In this document: positions 4,625 to 58,495 of the stretch, in pieces
Numbering within the stretch: the first letter of the stretch is position 1
Layout of the letters: each line of letters starts with the position of its first letter
Assembly (NCBI GenBank): GCA_951406725.2
Contig: OX597822.1
Span: 2,356,001 to 2,420,000, forward strand
Source: Octopus vulgaris
Lineage: Eukaryota
Length of the DNA: 64,000 bases
Reading direction: 5' to 3'
Translations under genes and position numbers: made by a program
Notes under the pieces: model-generated
Databases searched by the model: none
What the model saw: the letters and a program-made list of their open reading frames with translations, nothing else
Told to the model about the DNA's origin: nothing

Positions 4625-5053
4625 TTTGACTGACCAATTCTTATACTTTTGGCGAAATGCCGAATGATCAACAGTATTTTTTAAGGTTAACCTTGGTTTC
4701 CTTGAAGGATTATAGGACAGAAGGCTGGCTTAAAATAATCTCCTACGAATTGTCCTTTGGCTAGGAACCTTGTCTTCATGTGGTAGACCAGTATAAATAG
4801 TTTTAGAAGATTTTCTGGGTGACTTTTTGGTGGCTAGAACAATAGCATCGTCTATTCGCTTGCTAGTGGTTTTTGGACGATTCGTAGACTTGTCGAATCC
4901 ATATTTTCCAGTAGGTTTCGAGTTATTTATTGACCTTGAATCAGTTCTCTGAGCCAATTTCAATCTTTCACCAATTTGTCGAGTGCTGTATCCTTCTTCG
5001 TACAGAATTTTTATTTGAGCATGAGGTTCCGACGAAATTTTTTGACCCGGCAT
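4625..5053 (-). pseudogene. Tc1-like transposase N-terminal (paired HTH) fragment, interrupted by a stop codon
   Basis: MPGQKISSE...EGYSTRQIGERLKL...RPKTTSKRIDDAIV...SQRTIRRRLF* continues as SRKPRLT...YKNW, the typical Tc1 HTH layout. Confidence 0.8.
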
Positions 5054-5464
5054 TCTTTACAACGATAAGAAAATTATTAACAAGAACAAGTTGTGATAAG
5101 ATATTCTAGTTACAACTTATCAGAGGTTAGACCAGTCAATCAAAGTACACCAACCAATCAGGACCCAGTAATCACGCAGAAAATCCATTAACACTGAGTG
5201 ATAGGAAAACGGATTTGAACAATCGACTTAGCCTTAGCCGTAAAGGTCACCTTTAAAATGCCACCTCCGAAAACCTCTCTCGCCAACCTCTAACAATCTC
5301 TCCCACTTCCAGCTGACAGTTTTTTTAACATTTCCGCGACGGAAAATACACCTTTGGTGTATAATTGCTTTCTTATATCAGAGTAATAAGGCGTTTCAAT
5401 AGACCATCTTTACCCCCCGGGAATTACCGAGTACACCAGTTGGCACACACACACACACACACAC

Positions 5465-6466: not shown

Positions 6467-6829
6467 TCCATGGGCGCATGTAAGTATTTTATTTATTTCT
6501 TTTCGTATTTTCTACTGAAGAGGAAAAAATATATTATGAGATTAATTCCGAAATTGATTCAATATAGAAATAACGAATTTAAAAAAATCTTTTGGCCAGC
6601 TTTCCTCGATTTCAGCTCTACGTGTTTTCTGTACCGAGTAAATAATATGTGGAAATTGACGATTTAAAAGTCTGTTATCACCATATTCGCATAGTAATAA
6701 TTTTCTTTTTCCCTTGTTTATAAGTTGTTTATAATTTTAACCTTAAAGGTATTTTAATATGCTGCCACATTTTCTGATGAATTTTTTTTCTGTAAAAAGA
6801 CTTCATCCTATATTAGTAGTATATATATG

Positions 6830-16370: not shown

Positions 16371-16451
<81 letters not shown>

Positions 16452-16473
16452 TATATATTTATTATATAGAAGG

Positions 16474-16524
16474 AGCTTCTACAGGACTAGAACTGTTTCA
16501 TTCAAGAGAAATCTTCAGGAAGCT
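16474..16524 (-). ncRNA. Type I hammerhead ribozyme (mirror copy)
   Basis: Exact reverse complement of 19149-19199. Confidence 0.78.
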
Positions 16525-17583
16525 AGTTAACAAGAATTGTATTGGCATTTATACATTTAGGCAGGTTTAAAGGGGTGTTGGTGGGGGATTTGGGGGTAGG
16601 CATAGCGCAAAATATCATACTTGGGGGAGTGGTCAAGGAGTCAGTGTTAAATTAGATAGAATAATAAAAAAATAAAAAAAAAAATAATAAAATAAAAATA
16701 AATAAAAAATTTAAAAAATCTATATATAAAAAAGGGAATAGAGTTTTAGGTAAATAAGGAGATTCTCACTTATACCTATGCACACATGTATACATACATA
16801 CACACACATACAAACATATATACATATACATACACACATACATACACACACATATATATACATATATATACACTTACACATACATATACATATCTACACA
16901 TACACATATATGTATACATACACACACTCACATGCATACACGTATACACACATGTATATATACACACACGACCACACATACATATACGCACAGAAAAATA
17001 TATATACACATACACACACATACTCACATACACGCATACACACACATATCCACACACACACATGCACACACAGCACACTAGTCCCTATATACACATATAT
17101 ACACATACACACACATATACACACACACACATACATATACATACATGTATATATATATATATACATATATATACATATGTGTACCTATGCATACACACAC
17201 ACACACATATATATACACATACAAATACAGACCCATTCCCTAATTTTAATTTTATTATCTTCGTTTATTACTTTTGTTATCTTTGGCCGCTTGGTCACAA
17301 ACATCTTGGCTATGACAGCCAGTCCATTTATCTGTCTACTGGAAAACAAGCACTCATTCACTCACGCACACTCTTTAGCACGTACACTCACTCATTCGTA
17401 CACTCATACACATACACGCACGCACGCGTTATATTCATACATACATACATCTACATACATTCACGTATATACACATACGTACGCGTACCTACAGATTCAT
17501 GTCTACACTCTTAGAAGGCTAGTCTATATATATACACCAATAAATATAAATACACACACATACATATACACCTACATACAAAT

Positions 17584-17628
<45 letters not shown>

Positions 17629-17842
17629 CATATATATACGCATACATATACATACACACATACACACACATACGCATACACACACATATACATATATATA
17701 CACACATACACATACATACATATACACACATACACATACATACGTATACATACATACATACATCCATACATCCATACATACATACATTTATACACATACA
17801 CACACCCACAACATACATATATATATACGCGCATATATATAT

Positions 17843-17891
<49 letters not shown>

Positions 17892-18278
17892 CATATATAT
17901 TCATACACACACATACATATACATACATACATATACAAATATACGCACACACATACATACATACTCATATACTCATACACGCACATACACATGTACATGC
18001 GTACCCATACACACACACACACACCGCGCGCATCCATATATACACATAAGTACACCCATGCGTAAAAGTATACATATATCTATGCTTACACATACACACA
18101 CACACACGCGCCTCCTTATATTCATACTTACATGCATACTCAAAAAAAGTAAATAGTAAAATATATATACGCGCAGTTATTCATACATGCATACTCAAAA
18201 ATAAATAAATATTAAGTATATGTACGTGCAGTTACCTATTATATAGACGGATACATACATATAAACTTACACACATAG

Positions 18279-18311
<33 letters not shown>

Positions 18312-19148
18312 CATATACATACATATATATACACACACATATACACATACACATATACATACATATATATATATACACACACATACAATATATATATATA
18401 TATATATACATACTTACACACATGTACATATAAATACCTGTATTTGTATGTGTATATATATGTGTGTGTGTGTAGGTATGCATAGGTACACATATGTATA
18501 TATATGTATATATATATATATATACATGTATGTATATGTATGTGTGTGTGTGTATATGTGTGTGTATGTGTATATATGTGTATATAGGGACTAGGTGTGT
18601 GTGTGCATGTGTGTGTGGATATGTGTGTGTATGCGTGTATGTGGTATGTGTGTGTATGTGTATATATATTTTTCTGTGCGTATATGTATGTGTGGTCGTG
18701 TGTGTATATATACATGTGTGTATACGTGTATGCATGTGAGTGTGTGTATGTATACATATATGTGTATGTGTAGATATGTATATGTATGTGTAAGTGTATA
18801 TATATGTATATATATGTGTGTGTATGTATGTGTGTATGTATATGTATATATGTTTGTATGTGTGTGTATGTATGTATATGTGTGCATAGGTATAGTGAGA
18901 ATCTCCTATTTACCTAAAACTCTATTCCCCTTTTTTTATATATAGATTTTTTTATTTTTTTATTTATTTTTTTATTTTATTATTTTATTTTTTATTTTTT
19001 TATTTATTCTTCTATCTAATTTAACACTGACTCCTTGACCACTCCCCAAGTATGATATTTTGCGCTATGCCTACCCCCAAAAAGTCCCCCACCAACACCC
19101 CTTTAAACCTGCCTAAATGTATAAATGCCAATACAATTCTTGTTAACT

Positions 19149-19199
19149 AGCTTCCTGAAGATTTCTCTTGAATGAAACAGTTCTAGTCCTGTAGAAGCT
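19149..19199 (+). ncRNA. Type I hammerhead ribozyme
   Basis: AGCTTC-CTGAAGA-TTTC(TCTT)GAAT-GAAAC-AG(TTCTAGTC)CT-GTA-GAAGCT: 6-bp stem I, canonical CUGANGA and GAAA boxes, GUA triplet. Confidence 0.8.
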
Positions 19200-19624
19200 C
19201 CTTCTATATAATAAATTAATTTTACTCTGCTATGTATTGAGTACCTTATTTACTGTGGTTAACCCCGAATCAACCCGGGACCTACATATATTCTATGTAT
19301 ATATATATATACACATACATATTTATATATATATATATATAATATATATATATTATATATATAAATATATATATGTGTGTTTGTGTGTGTGTACATATAC
19401 ATACATATAATAAAACATAATAAAATAGGGTAATAATAAATTATTATTACCACAAAAAACGAATTCGTCATTAGACTATATAGTATTCATATCGAAATTC
19501 AATAAGAGGCTTCCAAATAGGTAAGCGTTGTGCTAGAACAGTGTCATCCACTATTGTTTGGGGCCTACCAATTGTTTAGTATGTATGTATATACATACAT
19601 ATATATATATACATGCATACTAAA

Positions 19625-19735
19625 CAGTTAGTAGGCCCAAAACAATAGTGGGTGACACTGGCCCAAGTGCCACGCAGTGCGACTGAACCCGAAACCAAGT
19701 GTTTGAATAGCAAGCTTCTTACCACCCAGTCACAT
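19625..19735 (-). mobile_element. SINE family A head fragment
   Basis: GTGCCACGCAGTGCGACTGAACCCG...AGCTTCTTACCAC. Confidence 0.75.
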
Positions 19736-20539: not shown

Positions 20540-20910
20540 AAAGGCGGCGAGCTGGCAGAAACGTTAGAACTGCTTATCGGTATTTCGTCTGCCGTTACGT
20601 TCTGAGTTCAAATTCCGCCGAGGTCGACTTTGCCTTTCATCCTTTCGGGGTCGATAACTTAAGTACAAGTTACGGACTGGGGTCGATGTAATCGACTTAA
20701 TCCGTTTGTCTGTCCTTGTTTGTACCATCTGTGTTTAGCCCCTTGTGGGTAGTAAAGAAATAAGAAACGTTAGCACGCCGGGCGAAGGGCTTAGCGGTAT
20801 TTACATTCTGAGTTCAAATTCCGCCCAGGTCGATTTTGGCTTTCATCCTTTCGGGGTCGATAAATTAAGTTGCGTACTGGGGTCGATCTCATCGGCTGGC
20901 CCCCTTCCCA
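20540..20910 (+). mobile_element. Two tandem SINE family M copies (20540-20765 and 20765-20910)
   Basis: AAGGCGGCGAGCTGGCAGAAACGTTAG head; GAGTTCAAATTCCGCC and CTTTCATCCTTTCGGGGTCGATAA each occur twice. Confidence 0.9.
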
Positions 20911-56225: not shown

Positions 56226-58495
56226 TTTCTTTATTAGCCACACAGGGCTGCACACAGACAGAACAAATTACAATGTAGAGCTTTTCTTTTGGGGGTAAAA
56301 AAAGGGGGTTGGTTTTCGATCAAAAGGGATCGTAAAAGGAAAGAAAGAGGACAAAAAAAGGTGAGGATTTAAAAAAAAAAGGGGGCGGGGATGTTGATCA
56401 ATAGGGATCGTAATCACAGAAATGTCAATATGAAGTGTAAAGGGGAGGACAGGTGAGGTTTACCCGTGGAAAGAAAAGCCTACGGAAAAGACCACGGTAA
56501 CCTCGATCAATGAAGTCACATGTTATATTTCTTTCTTTTTTTTTGCAAATAAGCAACTCTCTGTATCAATTTTTACGGTTCATAGAATCATAGTCAAGGT
56601 GGCTTCGTCATTCATACGTGCCATCCTTGCTACATTCACCCATCTTTTTTTAAAACATTCACTAGACAAAACTTGCCTCTCTACACTCACTTTCCTCTTC
56701 AAATGATACTTGAAGAAGTTGATGAGAGATTGACCAGAGAGGAAAGTGTTTGTCTCCAATCCTTTCAGGCGCGTCCACCAGATACATTCTTTGGCCATAG
56801 CCACAAGTATGATAAAAATAGCTCTTCCTTCCCGTTTGAAGGAAGGAGGCGTGACGATATTAACGATAGACTCGGCTGATAAACCGACACGTCCCACACG
56901 TAACAGCAGTCGTTCGACATAAGCCCACAGGTCGGAAATTGCTGGACACTGCCCGATTGCGTGCAGAGCGGTTTCGTCGCTCTGCCCGCATCTCGGGCAG
57001 GTCGGCCCCGTGTTTCTCGAGCCATGCCTATAGAGCTTATCCCGAACGGGTAGCGCTTCTCAGTAGCACCGCCAGGCCAGGGATCTCTGGAAGTTGTCCA
57101 TAGGTCCCGGGCCGAAAGTCGTTTGAAACAGGCGGGTCAGGTATTCCTCGTCGACGCCCAGGTTTGCCCCGAGATCGTCGTCGTACGTCCCCTCCACTAA
57201 TCCCCTATAGAATGCTTTGGTTGTGTTGAAGTCATTCAAGGTCGATCCGGGACGGCAGAGTTGCTTGAGAGCAACGCGACACTCGCGGTGCCATTCGCCC
57301 TTCCTCGGCCTCTTTTTGATCCACGACTGCAGTTCGGTCATGGAGACGAGCTGCGGGAATGCGTGCCTCACAAACGGCGACCACACCTGTTCACTGTCAT
57401 GTACATAGAGCCGGAGATATCGCAGTCTCAGCGCGTGTCTGCGCATCATCAACCACGGCATGCCCAGCCCTCCTTTTAACGTGTGTTGACAGCAAATGGA
57501 TCGCCTGACCATCGGGACGCATCCTTTCCACAAGAAGCGGAAGAGAATGCGTTCTAATTTGGTGATGGTAGGGTCGGGACAAGGTACGACGGTCAGGCGG
57601 TAGTAGATGATGGACGCGATGTACGTGTTCGCCACCTCCGCCCGACTTTTTAGGGAGTTTCCTCTCGGCCCATTGCTGGGCGAGAATGACCACCCTACTC
57701 GTTATCTCGTTCCAGTTCTTCTCCATTTGGAGGTCCGGACCGAACCAGACCCCGAGCAACTCAACCGGGCCGTCTGTCCAGCGTCCCACGACGGAGGCAC
57801 TGGTGGACGGCATAGGCTTGCTTCTCCAGGTACCGAGCCGCAAGCCCACTGACTTTTCCCGGTTGATTTTTGCTCCTGTCACCGCTTCGTAGTCTTTCAG
57901 TGTCTCGCCGACCCGCTCGATGTGCTCGTGGCTTGACACTATGACGGTGACGTCGTCCGCGTATGCAGACACGCTCGTCCCACATCCCAATTCTCGCGGG
58001 ATGCCCCTTAGAGTCGCCAGCTTCCGCAGTAGTGGCTCAAGAGTCAATACGTATAGAAGCGCTGAGAGGGGGCATCCCTGACGGACCGAACGTGCAATGT
58101 CGAAGAGGTCTGGATAGATGTCCATTTACGCGAATTACCGAACGGATGCCTCTGTACAAGGCAGCTATCCAGTCGCGGAAGACGGGACCGAAACCAGCCG
58201 CTCTCAGGACTGCCTCCAAGTATCGATGGTCTACCCTATCGAAGGCTTTCGATTGATCCAAGTTGATCAGGGCCCCACCCATGCCAGGTTCGTTAACTAC
58301 CCTGTCTATGATGTAGCGCATCAGATGGAGGTTGTCATGGATGCTCCGGCCCGGCACAGCTCACGTTTGTGCGTTGTCGACCAGTTTCTCGATGACAAGC
58401 GCCAACCTCTTGGCTAAAACCTTTGTCAAAATTTTCAGGTCTGCATTGAGCTGAGTGATTGGTCTAAAGTTATCTATAATGTTCCCCTTGTTTGG
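56226..58495 (-). mobile_element. 5'-truncated Tx1/L1-clade non-LTR retrotransposon (RT + C-terminal zinc finger + 3' UTR), frameshifted
   Basis: [61 protein letters not shown]; GC-rich; ORF ends at ~56580. Confidence 0.95.

Follow-up and report, generated by a model that had tools for sequence, protein, structure and literature searches.

In the literature on Penelope-like elements (PLEs), an inverted truncated copy accompanied by a tail on one side only is described as common (PMC8557442), and duplications of 8-10 bp, palindromes at the junction and unrelated non-coding DNA captured between pLTRs have also been reported (PMC3846280). Information on the insertion process comes from the Poseidon protein of Anolis, by which both target strands are nicked and extended and for which two internal starts of reverse transcription bound the tail. 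Cleavage by the anole hammerhead is assisted by protein and dispensable for insertion, uncleaved RNA being used (PMC11167929). Penelope families are present in the genomes dealt with in the excerpts of PMC13282606 and PMC3124438, and the carriage of simple repeats by transposons in repeat-rich invertebrate genomes is treated as an open question in PMC7878876.

We analyzed a stretch of 64,000 nucleotides of Octopus vulgaris DNA, hereafter the 64-kb window, in which all positions are counted. It harbors an inverted insertion of Penelope type, real and young, whose family is abundant and non-autonomous. This architecture has already been published, including the capture of non-coding DNA, so the locus is a clean example and not a surprise; what is unusual is the cargo and the long tail. 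The element totals 2829 nt and joins a 1981-nt minus-strand copy without tail, head-to-head, with an 848-nt plus-strand copy whose length includes the tail. Its features are the following, with the basis of each in brackets.

16444 to 16456, plus strand: left 13-nt copy of the candidate target-site duplication, where a (TA)n run ends (repeat search).
16457 to 18437, minus strand: long 5'-truncated copy, tail-less, with the order, from 18437 to 16457, microsatellite body, U-rich tract, C-rich segment, hammerhead and inner 3' end (continuous CA-rich polarity; C-G peak at 18438).
16457 to 17230, minus strand: left inverted arm, that is, the part of the long copy common to the short copy (alignment).
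16474 to 16524, minus strand: type I hammerhead motif, predicted cut after 16480 (descriptor).
17231 to 18437, minus strand: distal cargo, single-copy at the locus (repeat scans, polarity), with a non-alternating segment of about 190 nt (17231-17418), scrambled CA/TA microsatellite with a 55-nt dimer (18129-18234) and three pure (TA)10-16 runs (17593-17624, 17846-17877 and 18389-18408).
18426 to 18451, unstranded: inversion junction with a 12-bp imperfect palindrome, loop at 18438-18439 (palindrome scan).
18438 to 19285, plus strand: short 5'-truncated copy (848 nt) with tail (alignment, family ends, polarity).
19149 to 19199, plus strand: type I hammerhead motif, predicted cut after 19193, with a CUAG palindrome in the stem III loop (descriptor, fold).
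19217 to 19285, plus strand: tail between the two 3' ends of the family, the end lying on a predicted stem-loop with an AC-rich loop (loose ends of contigs).
19286 to 19298, plus strand: right copy of the candidate target-site duplication (repeat search).

A first-pass annotation of this DNA had placed inverted arms of about 775 bp at 16457-17230 and 18438-19216, and local alignment of these segments indeed gives 761 matches, 3 mismatches and 25 gap columns. The three mismatches all fall inside an A-rich tract, and the gaps correspond to 15 small indel events that are due either to sequencing errors or to slippage. The longest identical run, 235 nt, is found within the irregular microsatellite. 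The layout is not that of two arms flanking a neutral spacer, and on this point the picture has to be corrected: the 1.2-kb middle is the continuation of the left, minus-strand copy, and the junction lies at 18437/18438. Indeed, the plus strand is rich in CA between 16800 and 18400 and in TG beyond, the cumulative C-G has its maximum at 18438, and this switch of strand polarity coincides exactly with the inner end of the right arm. Because the CA/TG polarity flips there, the middle belongs to the left copy, and 16457-18437 would form one single copy. A long copy on the plus strand, with its junction at 17230/17231, had also been considered and was dropped after this polarity test. The palindrome centred on the junction pairs at 11 of its 12 positions, and the other 10 palindromes reported by the scan lie in near-pure TA runs. 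As assembled, the sequence therefore contains an inverted 5'-truncated second copy with a palindrome at the junction. In both arms, an imperfect hairpin is predicted where the microsatellite body meets the non-repetitive end (16748-16776, -8.2 kcal/mol; 18891-18917, -7.3 kcal/mol), and the arms could pair with each other with a predicted duplex energy of -1260 kcal/mol.

A 13-nt direct repeat, identical at 12 of 13 positions and exact over the first 11, adjoins both ends of the element (16444-16456 and 19286-19298). On both strands of the 64-kb window, the 11-mer is found only at 16444 and 19286, and an equally good match is offered by just 2 further of 6812 TA-rich 13-mers. We regard the repeat as a candidate target-site duplication in a (TA)n target, its weak points being the TA-rich surroundings and the one mismatch. 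Since it adjoins both ends, the entire 2.8 kb, with its microsatellite, most plausibly represents one insertion.

The tail, announced as about 70 bp on one side only, measures 69 nt and is present on the right side. Its limits were examined in public sequence runs. Among the 24 runs listed, four were placed on 18810-19310; 18810-19013 was skipped as repeat, the covered part being 19014-19291. On the latter, organism B is represented by 2265 placed contigs (run X2) and organism C by 1404 (run X5), and 9 more come from X17, presumed to be an RNA set. Within the best 18 of 83 loose-end rows, loose ends continuing into (AT)n were observed at 19216 in at least 12, at least 14 and at least 1 contigs of X2, X5 and X17, respectively, and at 19291 in at least 36 and at least 17 contigs. 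Because 19286-19291 reads ATATAT, which is compatible with any (AT)n target, the outer end of the family is 19285 within that ambiguity. To judge from these contigs, two 3' ends, at 19216 and about 19285, each followed by (AT)n, are the tail signature of Penelope.

The element family is very abundant in public contigs; the summed depths there reach 1.4 million, a value that does not translate into copy number. As many as 848 of the 2265 contigs of X2 and 683 of the 1404 of X5 are at least 99% alike, and no substitution separates the arms outside the A-tract, which supports the young age originally assigned to the element. Depth in X2 remains within about three-fold throughout 19014-19285. In X5 the hammerhead (19149) marks a rise in depth of about five-fold, which implies that in many copies of organism C even the proximal upstream part would be missing or different. 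Loose ends also accumulate at the first base of stem I, in at least 13 contigs (6, 4 and 3 in the three runs; best 18 of 83 loose-end rows), some of them with the upstream sequence of a sister subfamily and some with a short inversion resembling the 18437/18438 junction. Truncations and short inversions thus cluster at 19149, where an AGCT palindrome could permit snap-back. The sister subfamily is distinguished by a different 18 nt immediately upstream of the hammerhead. A 10-nt motif like this pre-hammerhead sequence is seen at 17313-17326 (plus strand), in the non-alternating segment of the cargo, and may be either a chance match or the remnant of an older copy.

The situation differs in the raw DNA run X21, which bears the label of organism A, as the best holder does. 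It yielded just 8 reads in 1934 million letters, all of them on 19150-19235 and from a rearranged fragment, and the family is therefore nearly absent from this run. Two explanations offer themselves: several lineages may go under one label, or the family may be patchy. Should the label be correct, the expansion of the family would be restricted to a lineage or a population. Within the 64-kb window itself, alignment revealed no second copy of the family.

In both arms the hammerhead motif lies in the terminal repeat and is sense towards the 3' end. The two motifs are identical, with a 6-bp stem I, CUGAAGA, a U10.1-U11.1 pair, GAAA and a GUA site, and the type I hammerhead descriptor that finds them had no match in 60 Markov-simulated 64-kb windows. 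The descriptor thus upholds the earlier mention of an apparently intact hammerhead in each arm, intactness being here a property of the sequence alone. A scan of the window with Rfam gave no match at the gathering score, and at E<=10 no hammerhead family figured among 141 matches, all of them sub-threshold and of a microsatellite-like miRNA kind. The folding energy of the hammerhead segment is unremarkable (z about -0.9). Its hammerhead fold is predicted at -7.3 kcal/mol against a minimum of -8.5, that is, 1.2 above it, with a probability of 0.018 in the monomer ensemble, and a dimer formed via the CUAG loop is predicted at -27.0 against 2 x -8.5 kcal/mol. Stem III loops with palindromes have been described, and U10.1-U11.1 is given as the best-tolerated mismatch among natural hammerheads, in the excerpt of PMC3088659. 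Since no variant of 5% or more is listed inside the hammerhead span for X2, X5 and X17 (contig placement), the U-U pair is, as far as these contigs tell, a state of the family rather than decay of a single copy. The exact 24-nt hammerhead pattern had no match in metagenome, prokaryote-genome or viral contigs.

Two other observations on this region were not retained. Adapter junctions of X17 at 19185, 19191 and 19280 come near the predicted cut at 19193 or the end of the tail; none falls on the cut, and they were set aside because contigs cannot reveal RNA ends. An intron from about 18894 to 19150, suggested by splice-like motifs, is unsupported, X17 contigs having no joint there. A second, unrelated type I hammerhead motif is located at 6509-6570 (plus strand), with a predicted cut after 6564, a 6-bp stem I, a G10.1-C11.1 pair, a long stem II loop and a near-palindromic stem III. 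A (TA)n(TG)n run precedes it by about 45 nt, and the motif is probably the end of a different Penelope-like family.

As for coding capacity, the element had been called ORF-less, and we came to the same view: 13 stop-free frames of at least 100 codons overlap the microsatellite and none of the 13 matches Pfam, so that by this search an ORF for a reverse transcriptase (RT) plus GIY-YIG is absent from the element. All three frames across the hammerhead motif contain stops. A peptide search with the 32-codon open frame behind the hammerhead returned two proteins, matched via internal repeats, and neither is an RT; this search thus linked no RT/endonuclease partner to the element. Other repeats are scattered in the window. 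Frameshifted RVT_1 fragments on the minus strand, at 57400-58360 and 56583-57059 (E 5e-13 and 7e-6), lie in a GC-rich stretch with a weak zf-RVT match (E 1e-4); they are LINE-like and show no link to the element. A helix-turn-helix fragment of a Tc1/mariner-type transposase, under the Pfam cut-off, occupies 4733-5056 (minus strand). To the right of the element, a separate 62-nt inverted repeat (89%) at 19539-19660 is MITE-like, and a short repeat present in two copies about 200 nt apart (20595-20697 and 20801-20897) is one which we take to be SINE-like.

Purine/pyrimidine-alternating microsatellite makes up 64% of the element, and the cargo represents about 1.6 kb of scrambled simple-repeat DNA within the insertion. 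That its irregular pattern is copied between the arms, as had been noticed from the start, is evident from the arm alignment. The window itself is microsatellite-rich, 7% of its 31-mers alternating at 0.9 or more. With one copy of the target duplication on either side, the cargo is most readily taken to have transposed at least once, and to this extent the earlier proposal that it travels stands; its sharing by the whole family is approached indirectly, through word shares. We sampled 216 words of 17231-19285, whose shares do not place cargo and hammerhead on the same molecules. Among the 24 runs listed for this segment, 20 hold words in part and 17 at least half of them, from 9 studies altogether. 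The best shares are 0.77 for organism A, 0.71 for organism B and 0.65 for organism C. Shares of 0.47-0.52 were found in five contig sets that come from 4 studies and comprise 45-138 million letters each; two 10-million-letter sets with the same species label reach 0.01 and 0.02, and the marine metatranscriptome X20 reaches 0.07.

These values have to be compared with what would be expected without cargo, 0.24-0.39. The hammerhead/tail part accounts for 0.19 of the sampled words, to which chance microsatellite words add 0.05-0.10 under a model trained outside the element, or at most 0.09-0.20 under a circular model trained on the element itself, in both cases for 1-10 million microsatellite letters; the chance model was trained on 6.5 kb of sequence. 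At the other extreme, errors would limit the share to about 0.74, a ceiling inferred from the 54% of words that the arms share. Since small sets cannot hold most single-copy DNA (the larger sets reach 2-4 billion letters), the cargo should be repeated or well transcribed. On these word counts, the microsatellite body probably belongs to the family, or to a productive master copy, as a standing part and not as a one-off read-through. The related suggestion that the element spreads its own (TA)n targets fared less well. Three pure (TA)10+ runs do exist, but all are distal and none is in the arms; the idea is thus weakened, as only the longest copies would carry them.

Altogether, we hold it to be likely that the locus is a single protein-less insertion of an abundant hammerhead-bearing family, made by a PLE-type RT/GIY-YIG endonuclease acting in trans on an RNA with 1.6 kb of scrambled microsatellite in its upstream part. 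The two 3' ends of the family and the target-site duplication speak for the Penelope-like inverted insertion, with hammerhead and one-sided tail, that the first-pass annotation had recognized. We propose that the enzyme would place one nick in each strand of a (TA)n target, the two being separated by about 11-13 nt, and that each nick would prime one cDNA at either of two internal start sites separated by 69 nt. From the inner start would derive the 1981-nt cDNA, corresponding to the tail-less minus-strand copy, and from the outer start the 848-nt cDNA, corresponding to the plus-strand copy with its tail. The two cDNAs would then be united head-to-head at 18437/18438 via a short snap-back palindrome, and fill-in would produce the target duplication. 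The RNA template was probably uncleaved, because the hammerhead is whole in both copies. For such junctions, self-priming on an antisense template is favored in the excerpt of PMC3846280. The present data fit this route and the joining of two nick-primed cDNAs alike.

Could the same structure have arisen otherwise? One could assume that the cargo was taken up only once, a short family copy lying downstream of a host microsatellite having given a chimeric read-through RNA that was retrotransposed a single time. The PLE mechanism would be the same and the family proper would be reduced to a hammerhead/tail end of about 0.3-0.4 kb. Such an event has a precedent in the copy-specific host spacers of 0.9-1.5 kb captured by Pen1 of Adineta vaga, according to PMC3846280. 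It would also agree with the microsatellite richness of the genome, with the depth step at 19149 in X5 and with the fact that contig placement, in which 18810-19013 was skipped as repeat, gave no direct linkage between cargo and hammerhead. On the other hand, the small sets from four studies exceed the share expected without cargo, organisms B and C come close to the ceiling, and the depth of X2 varies within about three-fold up to the end of the tail. We thus judge a one-off cargo unlikely, and only slightly less so once a PLE origin is granted.

The remaining explanations dispense with retrotransposition of the cargo or with PLEs altogether. Microsatellite flanks promote template switches, and a local inverted duplication at the DNA level, made by a repair template switch from an old family fragment and its neighboring microsatellite, would account for the short palindrome at the junction. 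But the left outer end falls exactly on one of the two natural 3' ends of the family (the equivalent of 19216) and the duplicated 13-mer adjoins both outer ends; as repair need respect neither, we consider this origin improbable. An inverted arm created by assembly or by long-read fold-back would be betrayed by differences of the kind seen between the arms, which are nearly all small indels and resemble those of a long-read consensus before polishing. Yet the sides diverge past the arms, the tail is missing exactly on one side, the flanks are distinct and a target duplication is present, all of which makes an artefact very improbable. Finally, inverted arms of 775 bp, the lack of an ORF and a flanking duplication are what one would also expect from a DNA transposon of the non-autonomous MITE or foldback kind, whose terminal inverted repeats are long. 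We give hardly any credit to this idea: the ends are asymmetric by 69 nt, where symmetric terminal inverted repeats, ending on the same base at either side, would be expected, family copies end at either of two 3' positions and are truncated or inverted at the hammerhead, and a sense hammerhead points towards each end.

If one retains the protein-less PLE insertion, a single genomic record would mirror the result obtained in vitro with the anole protein: two primed cDNAs, two starts, an uncleaved hammerhead and a staggered cut. A family with a recognizable irregular pattern would further render its copies traceable, datable and separable from repeats born by slippage. Mis-annotation is likely in such a case, the body being masked as simple repeat and the short end alone being called a repeat family. 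A bolder hypothesis would be that a very high-copy, lineage-restricted non-autonomous Penelope family spreads one fixed irregular CA/TA microsatellite of about 1.6 kb by retrotransposition. We put it forward tentatively, as a real possibility against which we still lean somewhat. If it were true, a measurable share of the compound microsatellites of the host would arise without slippage, the inverted pairs deposited could make long dsRNA, and the longest copies would lay down new (TA)n targets. Its importance would grow if the cargo proved family-wide and quantitatively important.

A parallel can be drawn with several known systems. The endonuclease-bearing PLEs Pen2a and Pen3a of Adineta vaga (PMC3846280; scheme in PMC8557442) are described with the same inverted 5'-truncated copy, tail at a single end and palindrome at the junction, and unrelated non-coding DNA is likewise moved between pLTRs in trans. 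Their target duplication is 8-10 bp long versus 11-13 at the octopus element. Compared with the PLEs of this rotifer as the excerpts present them, the octopus element has no ORF and a far higher copy number, and its cargo is 1.6 kb of scrambled dinucleotide microsatellite that is probably family-wide and not copy-specific. Its 69-nt tail is about twice the 30-40 nt of PLEs described in these sources. In Poseidon PAc of Anolis carolinensis, a hammerhead also lies shortly upstream of two RT starts that bound the tail, and the target is AT-rich. The distance from the cut to the AC-rich start loop is about 85-92 nt in PAc, while 92 nt separate the octopus cut from the outer end, which likewise falls on a predicted AC-rich stem-loop. 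In contrast, PAc is autonomous with an ORF that begins inside the hammerhead, whereas stops occur in every frame of the octopus motif, and the PAc ribozyme has been assayed whereas the octopus one is predicted from its sequence (PMC11167929, excerpt).

The clade of the autonomous partner can be approached in the same way. According to PMC8557442, the Hydra and Neptune clades have a canonical hammerhead, as here, with (TA)n insertion for Hydra and a microsatellite bias discussed for Neptune, and these two are our best guesses. Naiad PLEs target (TA)n as well but are described there as having no canonical hammerhead, unlike the octopus element, which departs from Naiad on this point. MRC1, from the Chlamys PLEs of Chlamydomonas, resembles our element in being non-autonomous, pLTR-bearing and recently active; it belongs to another clade, mostly without hammerheads, and the excerpt describes no microsatellite body for it. 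Non-LTR retrozymes are also non-autonomous, PLE-derived and endowed with a type I hammerhead and a dimer-capable stem III, and they are described as head-to-tail tandems of 150-450 bp units giving small circular RNAs (PMC7229834; bioRxiv 10.64898/2026.07.22.740005; excerpts). Unlike them, the octopus locus has a 2-kb unit with PLE ends, paired once and head-to-head; repeat, alignment and descriptor scans found no head-to-tail array of the retrozyme type at the locus, and no joint was listed for the X17 contigs.

The literature searched contains no account of a PLE that lacks a protein and has a microsatellite body, though subscription journals, repeat databases and supplements may hold one. 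A close counterpart of the cargo is offered by the penaeid shrimp Penelope, for which the excerpt of PMC7878876 describes microsatellites moved together with recently transposed copies in an SSR-rich genome. The shrimp copies encode a reverse transcriptase and their SSRs are passengers, whereas the octopus element is protein-less and consists, for about two thirds, of simple repeat.
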